This document shows positions 9,688-49,093 of a stretch of 64,000 bases of DNA, piece after piece. The DNA is taken from assembly GCA_016840855.1 (NCBI GenBank), contig JAEORO010000056.1, forward strand, positions 74 through 64,073. Direction: 5' to 3'. A program made the translations under genes and the position numbers. Source of the DNA: Candidatus Thorarchaeota archaeon (GTDB lineage: Archaea; Asgardarchaeota; Thorarchaeia; Thorarchaeales; Thorarchaeaceae). The notes below the pieces were generated by a model. It had not been told where the DNA came from. It saw nothing but the letters and a program-made list of their open reading frames with translations, and searched no databases. Each line of letters begins with the position of its first letter. The stretch's first letter is position 1.

Positions 9688-9779
9688 GGTTCAATCCGTC
9701 TCCAGCTTTATGGTGGTAATACTACGTCCCTAAAGGCCTTTAGGGAAGTGTTTCTTTGCGTTCCCCGGCTAAACTAAGC

Positions 9780-11129
9780 ATGGTGATTGTAATGAAAGAT
9801 GAACTAATTCCAAAGGACCTTGCAAAGAAATACACTCAGAAAGAAATACTTGAGATTGAAAAGAAATACTTAGCACCTGCTGTGGGTCATTATTATGAAC
9901 ATCCCGTCCTTTTTGTTGAAGGTAAAGGTGCTTTACTGAAGGACTCAACAGGCAAGGAATACATAGATCTATTCGCTGGCATTTGTACAACAATAACAGG
10001 TTACAATCATCCGAAATATGTAGCCACAATCCAATGGCAAGCAGAACGCTTGGTTTATACAAGCTCTCTGTACTCTACAATTCCTTATGCTGTGTTAGTC
10101 AAGCAACTAGCTGAAATCGCTCCCAGAGGACTTTCACATTCCTTTATTGTCAATAGTGGTTCTGAAGCGAACGAAGCCGCGCTCGCAATGGTACGCAAGT
10201 ATACAGAGAATCCATACATCATAGCATGCCAACGCGGGTACCACGGTAGGACAACTCTAGCAAGGGAGCTCTCAAGTGCAGGATGGCGTACCTTTCCAGA
10301 GGCGCATCCTCCTGGAGTACGATTTACACCGTATGGATACTGCTATCGGTGTCCTTTTGGCAAGGAGCATCCTGGTTGTGACTTGGAATGTGCACATTAT
10401 CTCAGGGAAGTCATACGAACACAGACCAACAAGGCAATTGCTGCATTCATAGCAGAACCAATCCAAGGAGTAGGTGGCATTATTCAGCCACCAGCAGAAT
10501 ACTTCAAGATCGTTCATGAAATCGTAAAGGAGTATGGTGGATTCTATATCTCGGACGAAGTACAGACTGGTTTTGGGCGAACTGGCAAAAAATGGTGGGG
10601 AATCCAACACACTGGTGTTGAACCTGATATCATCACAATGGCAAAGGGATTTGGTGGCGGAATCCCTATTGCTGGATTCATCTCTCGTCCTGAGATTGCT
10701 GTAAATTATACAGTCACTGATTCGTTCGCCACTTTTGGAGGAAATCCCCTGTCATGTGCGGCTGCCGTTGCTGTGATTGAAATCATTAGAGACGAAAACT
10801 ATCTAGAAAAAGCAGCCAAACTAGGTGGAATTCTAAAGAAGAAAATGGAGGAGCTTAAAGAAGATCATAAAATAGTTGGAGATGTTCGTGGTCAAGGAAT
10901 GATGTTGGGGGTTGAACTTGTTCGAGATCAGAAAACAAAAGAACCTGCTATCCAAGAAATGCTAATGATCATGGAGACCTGCAGAGAAAAAGGTCTCCTC
11001 ATTGGTAAAGGTGGTCTGGATGGTAATGTGATTCGACTTCAGCCTCCACTGGAATTAACTGAAATGCAGATTGATGAAGCGTGTACAATCCTTGATGATG
11101 CCTTCAAGAAAACCGAAAAAGGCCTCTAG
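9780..11129 (+). CDS. class III PLP aminotransferase (beta-alanine/omega-amino acid type by context)
   Basis: NSGSEANE, DEVQTGFGRTG and a TMAKG(F)GGG PLP-lysine region. The ORF-track frame begins at a TTG (9756); I used the first ATG, at 9780. Confidence 0.8.
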   Translation: MVIVMKDELIPKDLAKKYTQKEILEIEKKYLAPAVGHYYEHPVLFVEGKGALLKDSTGKEYIDLFAGICTTITGYNHPKYVATIQWQAERLVYTSSLYSTIPYAVLVKQLAEIAPRGLSHSFIVNSGSEANEAALAMVRKYTENPYIIACQRGYHGRTTLARELSSAGWRTFPEAHPPGVRFTPYGYCYRCPFGKEHPGCDLECAHYLREVIRTQTNKAIAAFIAEPIQGVGGIIQPPAEYFKIVHEIVKEYGGFYISDEVQTGFGRTGKKWWGIQHTGVEPDIITMAKGFGGGIPIAGFISRPEIAVNYTVTDSFATFGGNPLSCAAAVAVIEIIRDENYLEKAAKLGGILKKKMEELKEDHKIVGDVRGQGMMLGVELVRDQKTKEPAIQEMLMIMETCREKGLLIGKGGLDGNVIRLQPPLELTEMQIDEACTILDDAFKKTEKGL

Positions 11130-11137
11130 GACATCTG

Positions 11138-12073
11138 TCACTGTTTCGTTAGATCACCATAGCTATCAGGTCGCCGGTCTCTAAAGAACTGCCAAGTGTT
11201 TCGAACCTCTCTAATCATATCTAGGTCAACATCCGCAACAACAAGCTCTTCTTTGTCTCGAGAACCCTGAATGACTAATTGGCCACGTGGGTCTGCGATG
11301 TAGGAGCTTCCATAAAATGTTCCTGTCTTCCAAGGCTCCTCACCAACCCTGTTAATAGCTGCTATGAAGTATCCATTTGCCACTGCGTGCGCAGGTTGTT
11401 CAATGCTCCAGAGATGTTCCGAGAGACCTGCAACTGTTGCTGAAGGGTTAAAGACTATCTCCGCTCCATTAAGTCCGAGGGCACGAGCACCCTCTGGAAA
11501 ATGTCGATCATAGCAAATATAGACACCAATCTTTGCTACCGACGTGTTGAAAATAGGATATCCAAGATTGCCTGGCCGGAAATAGAATTTCTCCCAGAAT
11601 CCTGGGTCAAGCTGTGGAATGTGCATCTTTCTGAATTTCCCCAGGAGAGTGCCATCTGAGTCAATGACGATTGCCGTGTTGTAGTACACTCCCACTGATT
11701 CCTCTTCGTACATTGGGGCAATCAATATGAGCTTGTTGTCCTTTGCAAGTTTTTGCATCCGTTTGCTCAAGGGTCCTGGTATGGGCTCAGCATATTTGTA
11801 CCACTTTCTATTTTGTTCAGCACAAAAGTACGGACCAAAGAATAACTCCTGAAAACAAAGAATCTGCACCTCTTGCTGCTTTGCAATAGTGGCAAACCCT
11901 TCATGTTTTCGAATCATCTTCTCGATGTTTTTCTCAATGGCTGCTTCATCTGAAACATCGCCTTCCCATGTAGCTTGTACAAGACCAACTCGAACTTTTC
12001 TCAATGCTATCACTCCACTGACCTTAGAGAATGAACTCTTACTGTTGTATCTAATAGACGTTTCCCAAACCAA
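11138..12073 (-). CDS. beta-ureidopropionase / N-carbamoyl-beta-amino-acid amidohydrolase (nitrilase superfamily)
   Basis: Carbon-nitrogen hydrolase E-K-C triad context (FQELF, FRKMHIP, ICYDRHFPE). The specific call relies on its neighbours. Confidence 0.7.
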   Translation of the reverse strand: MVWETSIRYNSKSSFSKVSGVIALRKVRVGLVQATWEGDVSDEAAIEKNIEKMIRKHEGFATIAKQQEVQILCFQELFFGPYFCAEQNRKWYKYAEPIPGPLSKRMQKLAKDNKLILIAPMYEEESVGVYYNTAIVIDSDGTLLGKFRKMHIPQLDPGFWEKFYFRPGNLGYPIFNTSVAKIGVYICYDRHFPEGARALGLNGAEIVFNPSATVAGLSEHLWSIEQPAHAVANGYFIAAINRVGEEPWKTGTFYGSSYIADPRGQLVIQGSRDKEELVVADVDLDMIREVRNTWQFFRDRRPDSYGDLTKQ

Positions 12074-12112
12074 TTTATGGCAAGACTCTCACTATTCTGT
12101 GGAGAACTTCCG

Positions 12113-13504
12113 ATGGCAGAACTAGATCTAATTGTCAAGAATGGAACTGTTGTGACTGCAGTTGACACCTACAAGGCAGATGTTGGAGTTAGGGACGGAA
12201 AAATCGCAGCCTTGGGGCTTGATCTCGATTCAGAACCTGATACAAAAGTCGTCGATGCAATGGGCAAGTATGTCTTTCCTGGCGGTATCGATGTCCATGT
12301 TCATTTTCAACTGCCATTCTCTGGAACAGTTTCTGCTGATGATTTTGAAAATGGCACCAAAGCGGCAGCATGTGGAGGTGTAACTACAGTTCTTGACTTC
12401 GCTATCCAAAAGAAAGGACATTCAATAATGGAGGCTGTGGAAGCACGTAGAGCTGAGGCAGATTCGAATGTGTGCATAGATTATGGTCTACATGCAGCTA
12501 TTACTGATTGGAACTCTCAGACACAGGCCGAGATAAAGAGAATCATCGAATATGGAATACCTACTTTCAAGATGTTCATGATATACAAGAATGAAGGATG
12601 GATGGCAAACGATGGCATGCTCTTCAATGCACTAGAAGAAACTGCCAAGCTAGGCGGTCAAATTGGAGTGCACGCAGAGAGTGTAGACGTGCTAGACATG
12701 TTAATTGAAAGATACGCTCAGGAGAAAGAGAAATGGGGTGCTTATGGGCATACTCTATCCAGACCATGTTATGTTGAGGAAGAGGCAATCATTAGGGCGA
12801 TTAAATGGGCTGAAGCTACCGGAGGAAAACTATACATCGTTCACATGTCAACTGGTGAAGGTGCAGAGGCTGTTCATGCTGCTAAGAATAGAGGTGTGAA
12901 CGTTTATGCTGAAACCTGCCCCCAGTACTTGCTTTTAGATGACGAGGTATTCAAACAAAAAGACGGGCACCTCTATGCTACTTGTCCCCAGATTAAGAAA
13001 CCACATGATAGTGAACGATTGTGGGAAGGGCTTGCAAATGGAGATGTACAGATTGTTGCTACTGATACATGCACGTTTGACACAAAACAAAAAGCTGCAT
13101 GGAATGGTGACTTCAGAAAGATTCCCTTTGGTATGCCTGGTGTTGAAACCATGGTACCATTGATGCATACAGAGGGAGTCGGTAAACGAGGTTTCAGTGT
13201 GAACCATTTAGTGTCTCTCGTCAGTACTAATCCCGCCAAACTCTTTGGACTCTTCCCTGAAAAAGGGACAATAGTAATTGGTAGTGATGCTGATCTGGTC
13301 ATCTTCGACCCGAAAAAAGAGGTAACGCTTAAAGCTGAAAATCTTCAAACAAATTGTGATTGGAATCCGTTTGAGGGTTGGCAGCTTGCAGGATACCCGA
13401 CTACAACAATCTCGCGAGGTAAGATAGTTGCTGAGAGTGGTACCTTTGTGGGTGAAGTAGGTCACGGAAGATTTCTCAAAAGAAAGCCCTTTGGAAAGCT
13501 TTGA
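12113..13504 (+). CDS. dihydropyrimidinase / D-hydantoinase
   Basis: Cyclic amidohydrolase motifs GGIDVHVHF, the TFKMFM region with the carboxylated Lys, and IVHMS. Start taken at MAELDLIVKNG. Confidence 0.85.
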   Translation: MAELDLIVKNGTVVTAVDTYKADVGVRDGKIAALGLDLDSEPDTKVVDAMGKYVFPGGIDVHVHFQLPFSGTVSADDFENGTKAAACGGVTTVLDFAIQKKGHSIMEAVEARRAEADSNVCIDYGLHAAITDWNSQTQAEIKRIIEYGIPTFKMFMIYKNEGWMANDGMLFNALEETAKLGGQIGVHAESVDVLDMLIERYAQEKEKWGAYGHTLSRPCYVEEEAIIRAIKWAEATGGKLYIVHMSTGEGAEAVHAAKNRGVNVYAETCPQYLLLDDEVFKQKDGHLYATCPQIKKPHDSERLWEGLANGDVQIVATDTCTFDTKQKAAWNGDFRKIPFGMPGVETMVPLMHTEGVGKRGFSVNHLVSLVSTNPAKLFGLFPEKGTIVIGSDADLVIFDPKKEVTLKAENLQTNCDWNPFEGWQLAGYPTTTISRGKIVAESGTFVGEVGHGRFLKRKPFGKL

Positions 13505-13550
13505 AAAACATCTCGTCAACCTCATAAGTCATAACCAGTAACTAAATTCT

Positions 13551-14393
13551 ATGCGATTTCCAAACAACCGTGCGTATCATGTAATCTATGACGACTCGCT
13601 AATGGATGCAGTCAAGTATGCAGCAGAGAATGATTGGACCAGCATAGTACCAGACATTGGTGTTCCCGCGTTCTCACCTGAGCGAATCTTGACTGATGAA
13701 CGCACCCGTTTACGAGAACTGTCACGAAACCTATCTGTCGGCTGGGGTTTTCATGCAGCTGGTGATAATGTTAGCCTATTTTCGACATATCCTCCGATTA
13801 AGGCCGGAATTATTCAGTATTTCAAGCAAACAATCAATTTGGCTCGAGAGATAAGCACCGGACCAACAAATGTGGTGATTCATGCTGGAGTTCCTCCTGG
13901 GTTCAAGAAAGCCAGGGGTCAACCTGGAAATTTCAATGAGATTAACCATGATTTTTATGCTCAAACACTTCGAGAGAACATCACTGCACTGATTGAGCAT
14001 GCATTTCCCCATGTCAAAATTGCCATTGAAAACACTGGATGGACACCACTAATCAGGGATGTTGTAAGATCGCTCCTCCCTAAAGGACTTAGACTTTGTT
14101 TTGATATACCAAAGCTCTATGGTCCAGGATTCAAAATCATAGAGGAAGACTGGAACTTTATCAAAGAACACAAAGGATTCATTGAGGTTGTTCACATACA
14201 TGATATTGACCCAACTCTTGGCTCACATCAGGTAGTTGGAGAAGGGATTTTAGACTTCGAACGATATCTCCGTTTCTTGAGTGAACTTCCTACGAAACCT
14301 CAGTATGTTTTCGAAGTCCGACCCCGTGAAGATGCACATGAAAGTCTCTTGAAACTTGGTCGGCTTCTGGATATCTTGAATCTGACTCTCTAA
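13551..14393 (+). CDS. xylose isomerase-like TIM-barrel protein (sugar phosphate isomerase/epimerase family)
   Basis: VVIHAG, IAIEN and VHIHD are spaced as in AP-endonuclease-2/xylose-isomerase-like barrels (by eye). Confidence 0.5.
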   Translation: MRFPNNRAYHVIYDDSLMDAVKYAAENDWTSIVPDIGVPAFSPERILTDERTRLRELSRNLSVGWGFHAAGDNVSLFSTYPPIKAGIIQYFKQTINLAREISTGPTNVVIHAGVPPGFKKARGQPGNFNEINHDFYAQTLRENITALIEHAFPHVKIAIENTGWTPLIRDVVRSLLPKGLRLCFDIPKLYGPGFKIIEEDWNFIKEHKGFIEVVHIHDIDPTLGSHQVVGEGILDFERYLRFLSELPTKPQYVFEVRPREDAHESLLKLGRLLDILNLTL

Positions 14394-14399
14394 GTCTTT

Positions 14400-14492
14400 C
14401 TACAGTTGCATAGAAACTAGAATGTAGAAAAAGAGTGCAATAATGAACAAGATCACTCCAATTACTAACAAAATAGCAGTTCTCATTTCCAT
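14400..14492 (-). CDS. 30-aa single-TM micro-protein (not in the ORF track)
   Basis: My own translation is MEMRTAILLVIGVILFIIALFFYILVSMQL. The ATG lies 2 nt after the stop of the upstream PH-domain gene. It resembles the 32-aa ORF at 16990..17088. Confidence 0.35.
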   Translation of the reverse strand: MEMRTAILLVIGVILFIIALFFYILVSMQL

Positions 14493-14494
14493 GA

Positions 14495-15271
14495 TCATTC
14501 TCTCTCCTGTTGTTGAAGAATTAGTGCATCTCTAATTTCACGAAATGCTTCAAGTGTGTCACGATTCAATATTCTAATCTTTTTACTTGTCTTTCCAATT
14601 CCTGCAATTGGAAGTGGAGCTCGTCCAAATCCTCGAAGTTCACGGAGTATGAAGTCTCTTAGCTCTTCGTGAAACCGTACTCCTTCAATGTTCTCCTGGG
14701 CAGTACCTCCCCTTGTGAGCTTCTGAAGGATTATCGCAATTACTCCTCCACCTTGTACAGCAGAAGGCTTAGCGGCTGTTTCAATCTGAACGGTACCAAT
14801 CCCAAAGAGCCTATCAAAGATGCCTCTTCTCGTTCTCAAGTTTGTCACTGTTCGAAAGGGTACATGCCTTTGTGTGATGTTGATGATGCCCTTCCTCACG
14901 AATATCTCTGGACTGACTTCACCCTCCCAGCTAGCTAATGAATAATAGATGCGCCTAACATAGATGTAAGTATACACAATCCAGATTGCAAAAAGAGCGC
15001 CTGCTGCTAGCCAATAATATTGGGTTACTGTGCTCCACCCAAGTATAATGAAGACCTCTGTAAATTCAGCTAATGTCAGAATTACCTCTGTAATAATAGG
15101 ATTGCTGAAAAAGAGCACCCATATGGCGACCCAACTCAGGAACAGGATGATTAATACTCTCAACCATTTCTTGTAGAGAAAGGCATTGTCTGGATGGAAC
15201 ATTCTTCCACTGATTATCTGTTCCAGAGGAGGTTTGATGACCCGCCCCTCATTTTGAGTCATATGTCGCAT
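14495..15271 (-). CDS. bPH_2 (YdbS/YdbT-like) PH-domain membrane protein, paralog 1
   Basis: N-terminal VIKPPLEQ..GRMFHP, two TM helices, then GIINITQRHVPFRTVTNLRTRRGIFDRLFGIGTVQIETA, which matches the bacterial PH-domain consensus by eye. Confidence 0.7.
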   Translation of the reverse strand: MRHMTQNEGRVIKPPLEQIISGRMFHPDNAFLYKKWLRVLIILFLSWVAIWVLFFSNPIITEVILTLAEFTEVFIILGWSTVTQYYWLAAGALFAIWIVYTYIYVRRIYYSLASWEGEVSPEIFVRKGIINITQRHVPFRTVTNLRTRRGIFDRLFGIGTVQIETAAKPSAVQGGGVIAIILQKLTRGGTAQENIEGVRFHEELRDFILRELRGFGRAPLPIAGIGKTSKKIRILNRDTLEAFREIRDALILQQQERE

Positions 15272-15274
15272 TCC

Positions 15275-16003
15275 TCATTCTCTATCCTTTCTTAATAAAT
15301 CACGGATTTCGCGAAGGACCAATAGAATCTCTTCCTCAATACTGCCAGGCTCGAATAAAATAGCCTCCTCTTCTTCTGGCTGGACCACTTCTGTACCAGT
15401 AACATATGGGTCTTTGAACTTTCTAAGTTCTAGGAGGATGAAATCTCTCAATTCTTCATAGAATGTCAGACCTTCCAGCTTCTCTTCGGCAGACTGAAAT
15501 GAACCTGCGGACCCACTGGCTGTTTCAACCTCGATTGATCCAATTCCAAACAGACGGTCGAAGGGTCCTGCAACGCTTTGGATGTTCGTTATCGTGCGAA
15601 AAGGAACATGTTTCCTTGTAATGTTGATAATACCTTTTTTCACATAAATTTCTGGCATCGTCTTGCCAGTTTTAGCAATCACTGAATATTCGAAAGACCG
15701 AATGTATATTGGATAAATTATCAGGTAGGGTATCAAAATGGAACCTGTGATAATCCAATACCAGAAATTGAATGGGAACCATATGAGGTCAAAGGTGGAT
15801 GCAATGCCACCTGGATTTTCAGTTATTATACCAACAAGCCAAAAGACCAGTAACATTGAACCAATAATTGTTATCCATAGCATTACTACGCCAAAGACAC
15901 CAATGAACCAGTTCTTGTTGCGGAAATACTTTGATGGCTTGAAGACCTTTCCTCGAGCAATCTCTTCCATTGGCGGTTTGATTACTTTACCTCTACCTGA
16001 CAT
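15275..16003 (-). CDS. bPH_2 PH-domain membrane protein, paralog 2
   Basis: GIINITRKHVPFRTITNIQSVAGPFDRLFGIGSIEVETA. Start moved to the internal ATG at 16003, which is preceded by GAAGGAGAG. The longer ORF would overlap paralog 3. Confidence 0.7.
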   Translation of the reverse strand: MSGRGKVIKPPMEEIARGKVFKPSKYFRNKNWFIGVFGVVMLWITIIGSMLLVFWLVGIITENPGGIASTFDLIWFPFNFWYWIITGSILIPYLIIYPIYIRSFEYSVIAKTGKTMPEIYVKKGIINITRKHVPFRTITNIQSVAGPFDRLFGIGSIEVETASGSAGSFQSAEEKLEGLTFYEELRDFILLELRKFKDPYVTGTEVVQPEEEEAILFEPGSIEEEILLVLREIRDLLRKDRE

Positions 16004-16010
16004 GTTCACT

Positions 16011-16775
16011 TTATCTCTCCTTCTCGAGTCTCCTGTCAATTTTTTCTAGTACATTCCTAATCTCACGAAGTGTTATGAGTATCTCGTCATCTAGGCTGTC
16101 ACTCAAACGAGGAACTGGTTCATCTCTTGGATGTATATATTCAGTTCCTGTGACATAAGGGTCTCTGAACCGTCTAAGTTCATGAAGAATGAAGTCACGC
16201 ACCTCCTCGTAGAAAGTTATGCCCTCGAGCTTTTCCTCAGGACTTCTACCACCTTGAGCACCCCCAGAGTACCCAGCTGTTTCAATTTCAACAGTGCCAA
16301 TTCCGAAGAGTCGGTCTATTGGACCAGTTCTGCTCGCAATATTGGTGATAGTTCTAAATGGGACATGCTTCTTAGTCACATTAACCAATCCCTTCTTGAC
16401 ATAGATCTCTGGCATTGTGGTTCCAGTTTTCGATATCACGCTATACTCAAAGTTGCCAATGTAAAAGGGAATTGCAACCAGTATTGGGAGGAACCAAAAA
16501 GCTGACAATACCAGATACCAGAAGTTGACAGCAGGTAACCAGTCATAGAAGATAATCCAGAAGAGAGGTGTCCAGTTTGGAGTCCCGGAATCAGTCGCAC
16601 CAATCAAAGCTCCTATTGCAAGACAACCTAGTGTACATAACCATAGCAAAAACCAAACAAAGATTGCTCCAAACCACTCCTTGTAATAGAATCTACGATC
16701 TGGTTTGAATACTCGACCAGCTGTCACATCTTCCATTGGCGGTTTAATCACTACACTTCGGTTGTCATGATCCAA
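16011..16775 (-). CDS. bPH_2 PH-domain membrane protein, paralog 3
   Basis: GLVNVTKKHVPFRTITNIASRTGPIDRLFGIGTVEIETAG, with the shared C-terminal EEKLEGITFYEEVRDFILHELRRFRDPYVTGTE. Confidence 0.7.
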   Translation of the reverse strand: MDHDNRSVVIKPPMEDVTAGRVFKPDRRFYYKEWFGAIFVWFLLWLCTLGCLAIGALIGATDSGTPNWTPLFWIIFYDWLPAVNFWYLVLSAFWFLPILVAIPFYIGNFEYSVISKTGTTMPEIYVKKGLVNVTKKHVPFRTITNIASRTGPIDRLFGIGTVEIETAGYSGGAQGGRSPEEKLEGITFYEEVRDFILHELRRFRDPYVTGTEYIHPRDEPVPRLSDSLDDEILITLREIRNVLEKIDRRLEKER

Positions 16776-16988
16776 TTACATCATCTCCCATTTCTTGCGA
16801 TATTCATCGCTGATTGCTAACCCACCTAACACAAAGACCAGTCCTAACCCATCAAGAAGACCACCCAGAAAATAAAGAATCTCCGGTCCTCCAAGAGTGC
16901 CAGTTAGCATCCCTACAACTTCAATAAGCATAATGAATCCGCCAACTGACATAAGCACCGTACCAATTTCTTTTCTTTTCATTGACAT
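16776..16988 (-). CDS. 70-aa Gly-rich two-TM protein
   Basis: Abuts paralog 3, with its stop directly adjacent to the next start. Hydrophobic and Gly-rich. Confidence 0.5.
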   Translation of the reverse strand: MSMKRKEIGTVLMSVGGFIMLIEVVGMLTGTLGGPEILYFLGGLLDGLGLVFVLGGLAISDEYRKKWEMM

Positions 16989-16989
16989 T

Positions 16990-17088
16990 TCATATCAACC
17001 CCATAGACATTATTAGTAGTAGGAAGAAGAGAATGAGGGTTATGACAAAGATGACTACTTTAATCGCAAGTCGCGCTGCACTCACCAT
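16990..17088 (-). CDS. 32-aa single-TM micro-protein (not in the ORF track)
   Basis: My own translation is MVSAARLAIKVVIFVITLILFFLLLIMSMGLI. GGAGG lies just upstream, and the stop is 1 nt before the next start. Confidence 0.35.
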   Translation of the reverse strand: MVSAARLAIKVVIFVITLILFFLLLIMSMGLI

Positions 17089-17152
17089 AGTTGCTGCCTC
17101 CTTAGCTTTCCATATCTCATGTCTTCACACTTCATTCTCTTTGTTACTTCCT

Positions 17153-17884
17153 CTATAGCTTTGTCTTGAGAATCTCCCTAATATCTCGAAGTGCCAGCAA
17201 AATCTCGTCGTCGAGAGTACTATCACTTCTCTGAGCTGGTTCATCTCGAGGTGCAACCACTTCAGTTCCTAATGCATATGGGTCTCTGAACTTTCTCAGT
17301 TCACGTAGGACAAACCGTGTAAGCTCCTGATAGGCTTTTATGCCCTCAATTTTTTCTTCCGCGTTCCCGGGCTGTACGCCGCCAGAATAACCTGCAGTTT
17401 GAATCTCTACAGTTCCAATCCTAAAGAGTCTGTCAAATACACCAGCTCTACTTGCAATGTTGGTGACAGTTCTAAAAGGAACATGTTTTCGAGTGATGTT
17501 TATGATTCCTTTACGAACGTAAATCTCTGGAGATGCTTCACCTGACTCTGAAATTACAGCGTACTCAATGGACCTAACATATACTAGTATTCCTGCCAAC
17601 GCTGGAACTAGCCATACTATATGGACAATCCAAATCCATATGCTTATTGTTGGCAACCACTCAAGAATCCATAATCTCTCGTAGGCTGTCCAGCTTTCAA
17701 AGTATCCTATCAGCCAAGCAGTACTCCAGAGCGCAAGGATAGCAAGCGCCCATGTCACTGCTGCAAAACCGATGGACATGAACCACCATTTGTTCCTTAG
17801 TGCGCTCTCTGGCTTGAATGTTCTCCCAAAGGACACGTCCTGAGGGGATTCCAAAACTCCTTGTAATCCGTTTGCTACAGTCAA
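17153..17884 (-). CDS. bPH_2 PH-domain membrane protein, paralog 4
   Basis: GIINITRKHVPFRTVTNIASRAGVFDRLFRIGTVEIQTAG, with the shared C-terminal EEKIEGIKAYQEL..LRKFRDPYALGTE. Confidence 0.7.
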   Translation of the reverse strand: MTVANGLQGVLESPQDVSFGRTFKPESALRNKWWFMSIGFAAVTWALAILALWSTAWLIGYFESWTAYERLWILEWLPTISIWIWIVHIVWLVPALAGILVYVRSIEYAVISESGEASPEIYVRKGIINITRKHVPFRTVTNIASRAGVFDRLFRIGTVEIQTAGYSGGVQPGNAEEKIEGIKAYQELTRFVLRELRKFRDPYALGTEVVAPRDEPAQRSDSTLDDEILLALRDIREILKTKL

Positions 17885-17890
17885 TTATTA

Positions 17891-18391
17891 TCACGACTCC
17901 TTTCTTTTGTAACGCGGGATCTCCTTTGCTGCAAGTTTGTTGAAAATCGCAATTGATTGCTGAGTCATTGGAAGTTGTTCCTCATCAGGGCGGAGAGTAA
18001 TATTGTACTCATCCATGATTGTATCAAGTGTCTCCCTGCACTCAGCTTCCTTTGGACATTCAGGACAGAGTTTTCCCGCGTAGGAGTCATGTTTGTACCA
18101 TACTATGACACCAAGCTTCATTGTGAATACAATATACACTTGGGCATTTGCTTGATAGTCGAAACCGATGAGTATTCCCTTGTAGTCAAGCAAACTCTCT
18201 ACATCGAGCCGATGACTACTTGCCTGCTCATTCAACACTTTGGCGATCTTCTTGCGTGCTCTGTTGAGCACTCGCGACACATAGGCGGGGCTCCACTCCT
18301 CATCCACACCTTGTTCCGCAATCTCTGTGGTACTCAGTCCTTTTTGGAACTGTTCCCAGACCATTGCTTCGTGTGTTGAGAGTTGGGGCAT
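17891..18391 (-). CDS. Tfx-like / sigma-70 region-4-like HTH DNA-binding protein with a Cys-containing C-terminal domain
   Basis: LSTHEAMVWEQFQKGLSTTEIAEQG...YVSRVLNRARKKIAKVL resembles Tfx/LuxR-type HTH. Start taken at MPQLST, because the longer ORF would run through the divergent promoter. Confidence 0.5.
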   Translation of the reverse strand: MPQLSTHEAMVWEQFQKGLSTTEIAEQGVDEEWSPAYVSRVLNRARKKIAKVLNEQASSHRLDVESLLDYKGILIGFDYQANAQVYIVFTMKLGVIVWYKHDSYAGKLCPECPKEAECRETLDTIMDEYNITLRPDEEQLPMTQQSIAIFNKLAAKEIPRYKRKES

Positions 18392-18464
18392 TCTTGATTC
18401 ACCGCGTTGTTGGTCATACCACAATATGAACTTTTTGTGGTAATTCCTTGTTACATTCTTGGGA

Positions 18465-18523
18465 AAATTTATATATAAATTTGTTGAATGTTTACCTAGA
18501 TTTGGTAAACAATTATTGTTTAC
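18465..18523. promoter_or_regulatory. divergent promoter/operator: 18-bp AT palindrome plus three GTTTAC/GTAAAC half-sites
   Basis: AAATTTATATATAAATTT at 18465-18482. GTTTAC at 18490-18495, GTAAAC at 18505-18510 and GTTTAC at 18518-18523 form overlapping inverted repeats just upstream of the ABC ATPase start. Confidence 0.4.
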
Positions 18524-18537
18524 ATCAGGTGGAAAAG

Positions 18538-19308
18538 ATGGCAAATAACGGAATTGTTATTCAAACACACGGCCTGAACAAACGATTCGATACTGTTCAC
18601 GCCGTCAGAGATCTGAACCTAGAGGTTCGGTCTGGTAGTAGGTTTGGATTTCTTGGTCCAAACGGTGCAGGAAAAACAACCACAGTCCGGATTCTATCTG
18701 GTCTCATGAAACAGACAAGTGGTCAAGCCACTGTATGTGGTTTTGATGTCAGTACACAGCGTGATCAAATCAAGGCTGCAACTGGTCTGCTTCCTGAGTC
18801 TCCTGGACTTTACTCGAAGCTATCAGCAGTGGAATTTCTAGAGTTCATCGGAGCATTAAATGGACGAAACGGAGCAAGTCTGAACAGACGCATAGACATA
18901 ATGCTTGGCATGCTCGGATTAGAAGGTCGCCAGAACGACTTGTTAGAGTCCTACTCCTCAGGCATGAAACAGAAAGTGCTTGTAGCTTCAACATTATTGA
19001 GTGAGCCGAAGTTGGTGTTTCTAGACGAACCCACTTCTCGACTCGATCCCGCAGCAAGCGCGCTGGTGAAGGACTTGATACTTGTCTTGGCCGAAGAGAC
19101 TGAAACTAGTTTCTTCATCTGCTCACACCAGACATCGTTTGTTGAGGATGTCTGTGATGTTGTTGGTATCCTCAATGAAGGCTCTCTTGTTACTCATGGT
19201 TCTCCTCAGGAGATTATGGAAACAACTGGTGCAAAAGACCTCGAGGATGCATATCTGAAGATTGTTGGCGGTCATGTGGACAGAAAGACCTTGCTGGCTT
19301 GGAGGTAA
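18538..19308 (+). CDS. ABC transporter ATP-binding protein (ABC-2/CcmA-like)
   Basis: Walker A GPNGAGKTT, signature YSSGMKQK, Walker B LVFLDEPTSRLD. Confidence 0.9.
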   Translation: MANNGIVIQTHGLNKRFDTVHAVRDLNLEVRSGSRFGFLGPNGAGKTTTVRILSGLMKQTSGQATVCGFDVSTQRDQIKAATGLLPESPGLYSKLSAVEFLEFIGALNGRNGASLNRRIDIMLGMLGLEGRQNDLLESYSSGMKQKVLVASTLLSEPKLVFLDEPTSRLDPAASALVKDLILVLAEETETSFFICSHQTSFVEDVCDVVGILNEGSLVTHGSPQEIMETTGAKDLEDAYLKIVGGHVDRKTLLAWR

Positions 19309-20993
19309 TGCTAATGGTGCGGACCTGGTTGGCAATAGCGAAAGCAGAGTTCCAGGTGTTGTCCTCAAGTATGAGGGGTCATAGAAAGCTCTACACCAGT
19401 TTTCTTTATTCACTCGCCATTGTTTGGGCTGTAGTAATTACCCCAATGCTATACAATGCAATCCTTGGCGCATTATTCCCCATGGATGTGTTACGACCTA
19501 TGCTCATGGTGATATTTCCAGGGCTCATGCGTACTGTTGGACTATTCCTTTGGCTTGTTCTACTATTGTTTCCTCTATCGTATGCTCTGCAAGAGATTAA
19601 GATTGGACAGTGGGAGATCTTTTTGTCCAACAATGTGCGAACAAGAGACATAATGGCTGGAACATTTCTAGGGAAGCTTGGTCTTTATGGATTAATCATT
19701 GTTTTCTTGGCTCCATTGCTAGTGACTCCATTCATGTTGGCATTTGAGGTCAATGTTATTGGTCAGTTACTGGTTTATGGTGTTGTCATACTGTTAGCAA
19801 TGGGAACAATCTGGCTCTCGAACTTCCTAACAAGTGTTATTCAAGCAAGGCTAGGCGATTCATCACGAGGTAATGATATAGCAAAGGCATTGGCTATGGT
19901 TGTTGCTATAGTCGTCATCATCCCAATGTATGGCTTGATGTTCTTCCTCCCGACTCTGTCTGAGTTGATGGGTATGAATGCATTTCTTATCCTTCCCTCT
20001 ACATGGTTTGCTGACTTAATTAGCTGGCTCGCAATAACATTCAATGGCATTGGATTGACTAGTGCTCATATAGCAGCCTTCTCATCAATACTTCAGTTGG
20101 ACTTGTTGATTACTGGAGTCTTAACGATAGGTTTCACTCTTGGTATAGTTGGTCTCGCATTGGGGATGGCTGATAGAGTTTTCACGATTGAGGCTGGTAT
20201 TCGTACAGAGGTTGTAACAACAGTTGGGAGCGAGAATGTGCTCCTAAGAGGCCTCAGGAAAATGAATTCTGGACCATTTGGATCACTTGTAGTCACCAAC
20301 TTCAAGGACTTTCTACGAAAGGCGCAGAATCTATCAAAGATTGGCTATGGCGTAATCCTCGCGATAATCATGCCTGTCCTTATGATGTCTTTTGATATTG
20401 AATATATTCAATTCAAAGAGATGTTCTTGATGATGGTTGCTATGATGTCTTTAATCGGCGCTTTACCATTCGCTGGTTCAGGATTCCTTGAGAGCAAGGA
20501 CCAACTATGGATTATTCAAGGGGCACCATCAGGGGCATCAAGATTCGTCAAGAGTAGGATTGTAACTCAGGCGATTATAGGTATACCATTAATCGCCATA
20601 CCAACAGCAGTAATTTATCTGATGCTTGAGATGACTTTTGCAGAACTCCTCCTCTTTCTTGGACTTGGATATGCAGCAGTAATCGGTGGAATGCTTATGG
20701 CTACTGGTGTGACTGCAAGGAACCCAAACTACGAGGACACGAAATCACCTGCCCACCAGGCAAATGTGATGACCTCCTGTCTACTGGCTGAGTTCTCAAT
20801 TATAGGTGTCATGTTTGTGGACATATTCCTAACTTTAGGTACAGGCATAGACTTCTTCGGAATAATTGAGAGTATATTTGGGCCGGGTAACATGATGATT
20901 GGGGTTTCTGCAATCGGACTTGTTGTCCAATGGATTATTGCAGGCATTCTTCTGTCGTCAGGAATCAGATATCTCTCTAGGCCTGATCCCTAG
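19308..20993 (+). CDS. large polytopic ABC-associated permease-like membrane protein
   Basis: The ATG overlaps the ATPase stop (TAATG). About 560 aa with many TM helices. The family could not be assigned by eye. Confidence 0.55.
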   Translation: MLMVRTWLAIAKAEFQVLSSSMRGHRKLYTSFLYSLAIVWAVVITPMLYNAILGALFPMDVLRPMLMVIFPGLMRTVGLFLWLVLLLFPLSYALQEIKIGQWEIFLSNNVRTRDIMAGTFLGKLGLYGLIIVFLAPLLVTPFMLAFEVNVIGQLLVYGVVILLAMGTIWLSNFLTSVIQARLGDSSRGNDIAKALAMVVAIVVIIPMYGLMFFLPTLSELMGMNAFLILPSTWFADLISWLAITFNGIGLTSAHIAAFSSILQLDLLITGVLTIGFTLGIVGLALGMADRVFTIEAGIRTEVVTTVGSENVLLRGLRKMNSGPFGSLVVTNFKDFLRKAQNLSKIGYGVILAIIMPVLMMSFDIEYIQFKEMFLMMVAMMSLIGALPFAGSGFLESKDQLWIIQGAPSGASRFVKSRIVTQAIIGIPLIAIPTAVIYLMLEMTFAELLLFLGLGYAAVIGGMLMATGVTARNPNYEDTKSPAHQANVMTSCLLAEFSIIGVMFVDIFLTLGTGIDFFGIIESIFGPGNMMIGVSAIGLVVQWIIAGILLSSGIRYLSRPDP

Positions 20994-48604: not shown

Positions 48605-49093
48605 TCAATGTATCGCATATGCTACATTTTTGAAGTCAATGTGTGCGACAGCATCTTTGTAATCTAGACTTCTCACGGTACCGGGGTCAAGACGGAAGTC
48701 AATGTGTGCGACAGCATCTTTGTAATCTGGGCTTCTCACAGTACCGGGATCAAGACGGAAGTCGATCATTGCAACAGCATCTTTGTAATCTGGGCTTCTC
48801 ACAGTACCGGGGTCAAGACGGAAGTCGATCCTTGCCACAGTTTCCCTGTAGTCAACTCGTGCAACCGTATCTCTGTGATTGATTATTCGGACTTCGCCAG
48901 GATCAAGCCGCCAAGCTATAACGAAAGCAGTCTGCGCGGTGTTCCCCTCATTGAAGTAACTATCTGATGTTACGTCCATTGTATTGTTCATACTCATCCA
49001 AGCAACTGCAATCATCGATCCAAAAGCAGCCAGTGATAAGACGAACAAGACTCCACAAGCAAATACAACCCTATGGGCTTTTTGGTTAAACAT
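48605..49093 (-). CDS. N-terminally membrane-anchored protein made of 21-aa tandem repeats
   Basis: One N-terminal TM helix, then ~5 repeats of the form RLDPGTVRSPDYKDAVAHIDF. Three are nearly identical and two are degenerate. Confidence 0.6.
   Translation of the reverse strand: MFNQKAHRVVFACGVLFVLSLAAFGSMIAVAWMSMNNTMDVTSDSYFNEGNTAQTAFVIAWRLDPGEVRIINHRDTVARVDYRETVARIDFRLDPGTVRSPDYKDAVAMIDFRLDPGTVRSPDYKDAVAHIDFRLDPGTVRSLDYKDAVAHIDFKNVAYAIH
48632..48883. repeat. 63-bp tandem repeat: three near-identical units plus at least one degenerate unit (coding)
   Basis: Units start at 48632, 48695, 48758 and 48821, each beginning GAAGTC(A/G)AT. The period is exactly 63 nt. Confidence 0.9.

Follow-up and report, generated by a model that had tools for sequence, protein, structure and literature searches.

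The closest studied counterparts of the system reported here are bacterial. In Bacillus subtilis, ydbST belongs to the sigma-W regulon (PMC3498285), and a YdbT-like gene was repeatedly mutated under pexiganan selection in Staphylococcus aureus (PMC12167497); the literature thus bears out the connection with an envelope-stress regulon and antimicrobial peptides that an earlier note on this DNA had drawn for YdbS/YdbT. YdbS has one PH domain and two transmembrane (TM) helices in 159 amino acids (aa), and YdbT has three PH domains and six TM helices (PMC8657885). The YdbS/YdbT-like proteins DdE and DdF, found beside an ATP-binding cassette (ABC) transporter and small membrane proteins, are each required for export of the leaderless bacteriocin EntDD14 (PMC8657885). 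Soluble bacterial PH domains form rings, larger ones where a helical element is added, and membrane bPH proteins have been proposed to act as pores or transporters (PMC2817789). Here we describe an operon of Candidatus Thorarchaeota archaeon (contig JAEORO010000056.1) in which a helix-turn-helix (HTH) regulator gene is followed by four genes for PH-domain membrane proteins, with three genes for small membrane proteins among and after them. The window (the whole stretch of DNA that was analysed) has 64,000 nucleotides (nt), and all coordinates are positions in it unless a locus is named; the eight genes span 14400-18391 on the minus strand. The operon is real and anciently conserved, and its gene content, its homology, the age and order of its paralogues, the coding nature of its micro-ORFs (open reading frames) and the conservation of its operator motif are established below. 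DdE and DdF, which are its closest experimentally studied analogue, were left out of the earlier note, as was the shared operator. The genes of the operon and the divergent ABC genes are as follows.

17891-18391, minus strand: HTH regulator, 166 aa, first gene of the operon.
17153-17884, minus strand: PH_A, 243 aa, YdbS-type membrane protein made up of a cytoplasmic N-box, two TM helices, a cytoplasmic bPH_2 domain and a tail at the C terminus, bPH_2 score 38.9 bits, orthogroup of array position 1 (cluster 15).
16990-17088, minus strand: mic1, single-pass microprotein of 32 aa, MVSAARLAIKVV...SMGLI, preceded by an AGGAGG ribosome-binding site of its own.
16776-16988, minus strand: G70, 70 aa, glycine-zipper protein with two TM helices.
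16011-16775, minus strand: PH_B, 254 aa, same architecture as PH_A, TTG start abutting the G70 stop codon, bPH_2 score 38.5 bits, orthogroup of position 2 (cluster 16).
15275-16003, minus strand: PH_C, 242 aa from ATG, bPH_2 score 40.6 bits, orthogroup of the penultimate position (cluster 18).
14495-15271, minus strand: PH_D, 258 aa, the paralogue that diverges most, its Gly loop being longer and its tail altered, bPH_2 score 40.0 bits, last array position.
14400-14498, minus strand: mic2, single-pass, 32 aa from the first ATG and 30 aa from the conserved Met, ATG overlapping the PH_D stop (ATGA).
18538-19308, plus strand: ABC ATPase, divergent, ABC_tran score 91.5 bits.
19299-20993, plus strand: polytopic ABC permease, 564 aa, likely start ATG at 19308 overlapping the ATPase stop codon, adjoining the ATPase across loci.

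Gene calls and the ABC genes confirm a single, tightly packed, HTH-led operon with a divergent ABC transporter. The gaps of 0-7 nt that had been described for its packing hold, along with overlaps, everywhere except between PH_A and mic1, which are 64 nt apart. A Shine-Dalgarno-like motif can be read from the sequence before every start in the operon, and in most related loci the operon genes are 0-12 nt apart or overlap.

Like YdbS and YdbT (COG3402 and COG3428), the Thorarchaeota proteins have two TM helices per cytoplasmic bPH_2 domain and are encoded in tandem in one operon, and the bacterial pair has the same total of four PH domains and eight TM helices as the four Thorarchaeota genes. 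In contrast to that pair, the genes here are four separate single-PH genes, their products (242-258 aa) are ~90 aa longer than YdbS and have an N-box, a DPYVTGTE motif and a terminal helix, microprotein genes are interleaved, a dedicated HTH regulator stands in place of an extracytoplasmic function sigma factor, and the host is an archaeon. In the clusters for enterocin DD14, lacticin Q and aureocin A53, the PH proteins (DdE/DdF, LnqC/LnqD and Orf7/Orf8) likewise lie beside an ABC transporter and genes for small leaderless peptides, so that PH proteins and an ABC transporter share one locus there as here. Unlike those clusters, however, the ABC genes here are divergent with a shared control region, the mic peptides would be simple TM anchors, the locus belongs to a chromosomal core that is syntenic and not accessory, and the sequence likeness is that of the common Pfam domain alone. 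The rings of soluble PHb1/PHb2 (PF08000; 3dcx, 3hsa, 3b77) give a precedent for both the PH fold and ring formation, but these proteins are soluble and of another Pfam family, and a ring of the Thorarchaeota proteins we only infer.

As had been proposed, the four proteins carry a bPH_2 domain: in a hidden Markov model search PH_A to PH_D all exceed the Pfam threshold for bPH_2 (PF03703), with 38.5-40.6 bits against a cutoff of 22. In each, two TM helices near the N terminus precede a cytoplasmic bPH_2 domain, which is the single bPH_2 match of the protein, and each is thus of the YdbS type (COG3402). Among 210 PH genes from the loci described below, none is of the YdbT type (COG3428; three bPH_2 domains, six TM helices) and none is a three-PH fusion or any other fused multi-PH or Rosetta-stone open reading frame (ORF); the longest has 301 aa, and each carries one PH domain. 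The four paralogues are 36-54% identical to one another, and the N-box, PH core and C-terminal motifs that had been quoted for them are all present and kept across 211 homologues. Homologues of PH_C have 236-250 aa; clustered at 90%, the family comprises at least 1,658 members, labelled in IMG as 'membrane protein YdbS with pleckstrin-like domain', with YdbT also in use. A bPH_2 protein in an archaeon is accordingly not the unusual find it had been taken for, the family being of this size and a single-copy HTH-PH pair occurring even in a 1.28-Mb Bathyarchaeota genome.

The PH proteins have nine K/R before TM1, none in the loop between the TM helices and five after TM2, so that by the positive-inside rule the N-box and PH domain, which flank the two TM helices, should be cytoplasmic. 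An AlphaFold2 (AF2) model of PH_C has two long helices at residues 25-61 and 64-103, where the predicted local distance difference test score (pLDDT) is 62-89. A sequence search of the PDB with the PH profile returned nothing meaningful, and no match to soluble PHb1/PHb2.

Conservation was assessed by segment in an alignment of the 211 homologues (PH_C numbering). The PH core (residues 100-161) has constant length and a mean top-residue frequency of 0.78; it is followed by a Gly-rich loop whose length varies from 10 to 27 residues, and then by a segment (residues 173-197, EEKLEG..FYEELRDFIL.ELR.F) that is free of indels and has a frequency of 0.77. A PH fold consists of seven strands and a C-terminal helix, and the last strand and the helix are required (PMC2817789). 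Since segment 173-197 is conserved and indel-free like the core, and is set off from it only by the variable Gly loop, it is most likely the fold's own last strand and C-terminal helix and not an extra module. Alignments to DUF7642, all of them sub-threshold, continue past the segment and end at positions 97-99 of 100. The first half of what had been proposed as a 'conserved extra C-terminal module' thus probably belongs to the PH fold, while the remainder is indeed additional. To judge from the alignment, the true family-specific additions would be the N-box (vi.pp.e....G..F.P), the DPYVTGTE motif, a variable acidic linker and the terminal helix.

A scan of one genome per species yielded 79 loci, mostly from Thorarchaeota or Promethearchaeota, with some in Hermod-, Heimdall- and Odinarchaeota bins and several labelled Bathyarchaeia. 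The fetched loci hold one (25 loci), two (8), three (19), four (22) or five (5) PH genes, some of the low counts coming from contigs that end within the array. PH copies cluster by their place in the array and not by genome, with A at position 1, B at position 2 and C at the penultimate position; the D-type orthogroup is at the last position in 40/40 members. Because copies cluster by place, the duplications must predate the divergence of the sampled Thorarchaeota lineages. The flanks are syntenic as well: one consists of the ABC pair plus a methyltransferase gene, the other of TIM-barrel, hydantoinase-like and nitrilase-like genes. A recent duplication private to one lineage, which would have undone the earlier note, is rejected given the position-fixed orthogroups and the conserved, syntenic neighbours.

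In the window, the stretch at 9756-14393 encodes a class-III aminotransferase, a CN-hydrolase (beta-ureidopropionase-like), a hydantoinase/dihydropyrimidinase-like amidohydrolase and a xylose-isomerase-like TIM barrel. This cluster looks like a pyrimidine or hydantoin breakdown set, and many Thorarchaeota loci preserve its synteny with the PH array.

The HTH gene is directly upstream of the PH genes in 70/79 loci. Single-copy loci occur in Bathyarchaeota as well as in other Asgard bins; there, co-conservation is limited to the HTH and PH genes, and the other neighbors differ. The Bathyarchaeota assignment of such loci is backed by a complete 1.28-Mb chromosome (CP070709.1, L080), where the pair lies amid SMC/ScpAB, SRP54 and ribosomal protein genes and where neither an ABC gene nor a micro-ORF is found at the locus. 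One HTH-PH locus (L057) is in a bin labelled Patescibacteria, probably through a binning error.

The micro-ORFs are kept in position. ORFs like mic1 (MVSAARLAVKVV...YMGLI) are found between PH_A and G70 or PH_B in 11 loci, and ORFs like mic2 directly after the last PH gene in many more loci than that, distant clades included. G70 was found by tblastn in ten loci (L002-L010 and L013), every one of which belongs to the group nearest the window. Selection was tested by Nei-Gojobori counts, comparing annotated with shifted frames. The ratio of nonsynonymous to synonymous differences per site (pN/pS) is 0.34 for mic1 (pS>pN in 66/66 pairs), 0.46 for mic2 (105/105 pairs) and 0.32 for G70 (21/21 pairs), against 0.57-3.0 in the shifted-frame controls. 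The micro-ORFs are real genes under purifying selection, and the possibility that they are spurious, or lack conservation, is rejected on their kept positions and in-frame ratios. The common ending ...SM(Q/G)L reported for the two tiny ORFs needs correcting for mic1, which ends ...SMGLI. In 30/48 multi-copy arrays and in 0/22 single-copy loci, the last PH gene has an ORF of 25-45 aa with a single TM segment directly behind it, so that the microprotein goes with the expanded array. A collection of 15 billion proteins contains mic2 and G70; mic1 is absent from it.

Leaderless bacteriocins are cationic amphipathic peptides. Compared with this general description, neither mic1 nor mic2 qualifies as a bacteriocin structural gene: each product is one continuous hydrophobic segment, with a 17-residue hydropathy of 3.0-3.8 and a net charge of +2 (mic1) or 0 (mic2). 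Since they are essentially one hydrophobic helix with little net charge, the peptides fit small membrane subunits better than secreted bacteriocins. Such considerations bear on the idea that the locus serves production, export and immunity for a leaderless, archaeocin-like peptide, with mic1, mic2 and perhaps G70 as exported or toxic products and the PH proteins and ABC transporter as the exporter. The three kinds of genes do stand together as in leaderless-bacteriocin clusters (PMC8657885). The mic peptides, however, have 30-32 aa that are nearly all one TM segment, are translationally coupled to PH genes and are under steady purifying selection; moreover the locus is chromosomal and syntenic across Thorarchaeota, and the core pair lies amid housekeeping genes in a streamlined genome, with no peptide gene there. 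We consider a peptide locus of this sort improbable.

Like Tfx (TIGR00721), LuxR/GerE and sigma70 region 4 proteins, the HTH regulator is small and has an N-terminal three-helix HTH followed by a C-terminal domain, but it matches none of these models. The window protein has no match in Pfam or NCBIfam, which includes Pfam GerE (PF00196), for which its relatives too fall below the cutoff. Nor can the label 'Tfx-like', given to it before, be kept: the window protein itself does not match, and distant relatives reach 18.8-26.5 bits against a TIGR00721 cutoff of 60.25, within the N-terminal HTH only. Membership in Tfx is rejected, since the scores are sub-threshold, come from distant relatives only and are confined to the HTH; the likeness would amount to a weak N-terminal resemblance. 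An AF2 model (pLDDT 82) has an N-terminal three-helix HTH like that of sigma70 region 4 or LuxR, then a four-stranded sheet and helices. A Foldseek search with this model returned GerE, RcsB and VpsT over ~55 residues of the N-terminal HTH only (probability 0.8-0.94, but E 0.7-1.5), and for the C-terminal alpha/beta domain with its His-Cys3 motif neither Foldseek nor sequence search found a PDB match.

Alignment of the Thorarchaeota and Bathyarchaeota regulators shows 67 invariant columns, with H101, C109, C112 and C118 among the invariant residues. The motif they form, H-x7-C-x2-C-x5-C (WY.H..C..C..C), is also kept in distant relatives, a hint at a metal or redox site. The regulator is ~75% identical between Thorarchaeota and Bathyarchaeota, whereas its PH partners are only ~50% identical over the same span. 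Among 1.84 billion representatives, no more than 93 relatives were recovered with its profile, and a homologue search with a distant relative found two short contigs only. The product on record (P0224) has 129 aa and starts at V38, without the first 37 residues and thus without the first two HTH helices; the 166-aa form is the conserved one.

Two forms of the regulator exist among close relatives (compared in L001, L003, L006, L013-L020 and L023): one of 166 aa, and one of ~212 aa with an insertion after helix 2, the two being 45-46% identical. The change of allele comes with a different operator layout, while PH_A stays 82-84% and the ABC ATPase 91-93% identical. Because allele and layout change together and PH_A and the ABC gene stay stable, regulator and site move as a single cassette, and the two forms look like a cassette replacement of the regulator together with its promoter.

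Genes downstream of the distant HTH relatives encode a bPH_5 protein with two TM helices, another 2-TM protein, a major facilitator superfamily (MFS) transporter and a pyrroloquinoline quinone (PQQ) beta-propeller protein. The first of these is in L082 (1449-2479 of that locus), where the gene for the 2-TM bPH_5 protein overlaps that of the HTH relative; the MFS transporter gene is in L083 and the PQQ beta-propeller gene in L084.

These findings can also be read as a membrane-to-DNA signalling pair, in which the PH proteins would be sensors or anti-regulators that hold or modify the HTH protein in anti-sigma/sigma style. The signal would be membrane state, or redox or metal through the His-Cys3 motif, and the regulated outputs the operon itself along with the ABC pump. 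No pair other than HTH and PH is universally co-conserved, and at each locus their genes are adjacent or overlap; the constraint on the HTH protein is far above that of a typical local regulator, its HTH resembles that of sigma70-r4/LuxR, its His-Cys3 motif is kept in distant relatives, and one of these (L082) has an overlapping bPH_5 partner. On the other hand, other distant relatives precede an MFS transporter or a PQQ beta-propeller gene and no PH gene, and the allele swap without change in PH_A argues against tight physical co-evolution. We regard this signalling pair as unlikely.

Between the regulator and ABC genes lies an intergenic region of 129-170 nt in 40/42 loci, and the 40 aligned regions form conserved blocks. 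In the window it has three features, the first two unstranded.

18489-18523, no strand: candidate operator, three GTAAAC/GTTTAC half-sites forming two overlapping perfect palindromes, TGTTTACC-N7-GGTAAACA and GTAAACAAT-T-ATTGTTTAC.
18465-18482, no strand: candidate TATA box, perfect 18-nt palindrome AAATTTATATATAAATTT, ~86 nt before the HTH ATG and ~64 nt before the ABC ATG.
18417-18442, minus strand: inverted repeat with 8-bp arms, TACCACAA-N10-TTGTGGTA, bounded by the TATA box on one side and by the HTH start on the other.

Each of the two half-site palindromes occurs once in the 64-kb window, against a chance expectation of 0.02-0.04. A GTAAA/TTTAC palindrome occurs within 200 nt upstream of the HTH gene in 53/64 loci; the background rate is no higher than 0.004 per 200 nt. 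The 12-mer GTAAA(T/A)NTTTAC is present in 38 of these 53 loci and elsewhere only three times in 824 kb. In the complete Bathyarchaeota genome the motif is also upstream of the HTH gene, right after a TATA-like element. The palindrome AAATTTATATATAAATTT, which is conserved across the 40 aligned intergenic regions, is a candidate for a shared, bidirectional archaeal TATA box with a putative promoter function. Seen from the ABC genes, the candidate operator comes after this box and before the ABC start, and for the HTH-PH operon this same site is upstream of the TATA box. Binding of DNA by the regulator and use of the promoter are predictions from these palindromes; candidate target DNA would be window 18465-18523 plus GTAAATGTTTAC.

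The inverted repeat may be either a hairpin in the 5' untranslated region or a second, degenerate operator (TTACC..GGTAA). When sequences were folded singly, most of the 42 loci showed a hairpin at the corresponding position, its stem differing in sequence between loci, and RNAalifold found no consensus structure in the HTH 5' region.

It might be asked whether there is any joint function here, or just four redundant duplicates with micro-ORFs and intergenic motifs that arose by chance. Short ORFs are generally frequent in AT-rich DNA, and that observation is all that speaks for such a view. Orthogroups fixed in position over dozens of genomes, in-frame pN/pS ratios of 0.32-0.46 against the shifted-frame values, and palindromes that are unique in the window and recur across the loci all speak against it, and we judge it exceedingly improbable.

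The divergent ABC ATPase is present in 35/39 multi-copy loci and in 5/17 single-copy loci. It is not of the ABC-2/DrrA type by score (206.8 bits to TIGR01188, where the cutoff is 312), and the permease has no Pfam family; general ABC_tran membership is all that is reached. In ten loci (L025, L031, L035, L042, L046, L047, L050, L054, L055 and L067) a second ABC ATPase gene lies upstream of the usual divergent pair. Those with contig-complete arrays have four or five PH genes, and L042 and L050 also have a second permease match. PADLOC matched the ABC ATPase to generic ATPases only and gave no match for the PH, HTH, mic, G70 and permease proteins; an anti-phage defence system was rejected on this lack of matches.

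The reading that we favour, and that we hold to be about evenly poised between right and wrong, is an autoregulated, YdbS/YdbT-like hetero-oligomeric PH membrane complex with microprotein subunits, which would act jointly with an ABC-2-like exporter on membrane-active peptides or amphiphiles. We favour it because the nearest studied systems are the bacterial ones (ydbST, the YdbT-like gene, DdE/DdF and the PH rings). The core of the module is a two-gene operon of a small HTH regulator of an undescribed family and a YdbS-type membrane protein. The likeliest binding sites of the regulator are the GTAAA/TTTAC palindromes that precede its gene, and the operon would for that reason be autoregulated. 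In Thorarchaeota the PH gene gave rise long ago to the four position-fixed types A-D, which most likely form one hetero-oligomer, their PH domains making a cytoplasmic ring beneath the eight TM helices of each A-D set. Single-pass microproteins of 30-32 aa would join this complex, as would, in one subclade, the 70-aa 2-TM protein. Control would be shared with the divergent exporter, whose transcription the operator-bound regulator would block. By analogy with YdbS/YdbT and DdE/DdF, membrane-active peptides or amphiphiles may be handled through export or membrane protection. The operon probably acts at the cell envelope; hetero-oligomer formation, the ABC link, DNA binding and the physiological role we infer from the genes and the analogues.

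Several points weigh against this proposal. The single-copy HTH-PH pair has no ABC neighbor in 12/17 loci, and it is found among housekeeping genes in the streamlined 1.28-Mb genome; since the pair mostly goes without an ABC transporter and amid such genes, the ABC link may be secondary and the core role more basic than resistance. Conservation of the HTH protein at ~75% between phyla is not explained by a simple local repressor. The bPH_2 alignments of PH_A to PH_D span only positions 12-61 of the 78 in the profile, and upon in-silico deletion of the Gly loop the match still reaches only position 61-66, short of the profile end. For the ring and the hetero-oligomer, the AF2 model of PH_C, built from a 26-sequence alignment, has an overall pLDDT of 54, at which no fold search was possible. 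The bacterial analogues are themselves poorly understood and only ~20% identical to each other.

In a bolder proposal, the HTH-PH pair would be a hitherto unrecognised archaeal signal-transduction unit, in which a membrane PH ring senses the membrane and directly controls the His-Cys3 HTH protein at GTAAAYGTTTAC operators; in Thorarchaeota a four-subunit ring with microproteins would gate the ABC exporter. We find this distinctly unlikely.

Two further observations concern the window outside the operon and its neighbors. The 3' end of an archaeal 23S rRNA gene lies at 1-423, in keeping with a Thorarchaeota source, as are the closest homologues, which bear that name. At 48632-48826, between two large minus-strand ORFs, is a tandem repeat (period 63 nt, 3.1 copies, 92% identity) that may be a repeated coding unit.

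A literature search for Thorarchaeota together with the PH domain returned nothing on this system. Already known are the domain family, the YdbS-type layout, and the annotation of the proteins as PH domain-containing. New are the ordered, unfused four-gene array, the conserved microproteins, the unclassified and strongly conserved regulator family with its predicted operator, and the control region shared with the ABC exporter. Membrane proteins with bPH_2 are very widespread, and few bacterial genetics papers address their function; a well-delimited archaeal operon with separate subunits is easier to dissect than the fused YdbT. The regulator is a candidate for a new family of archaeal transcription regulators, one whose predicted operator is directly testable, and three conserved small membrane proteins are added, one of them absent so far from public gene calls. 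Should the complex work with the ABC pump, Asgard archaea, a group whose membrane biology attracts wide interest, would have in it a system for protecting the envelope or for export.

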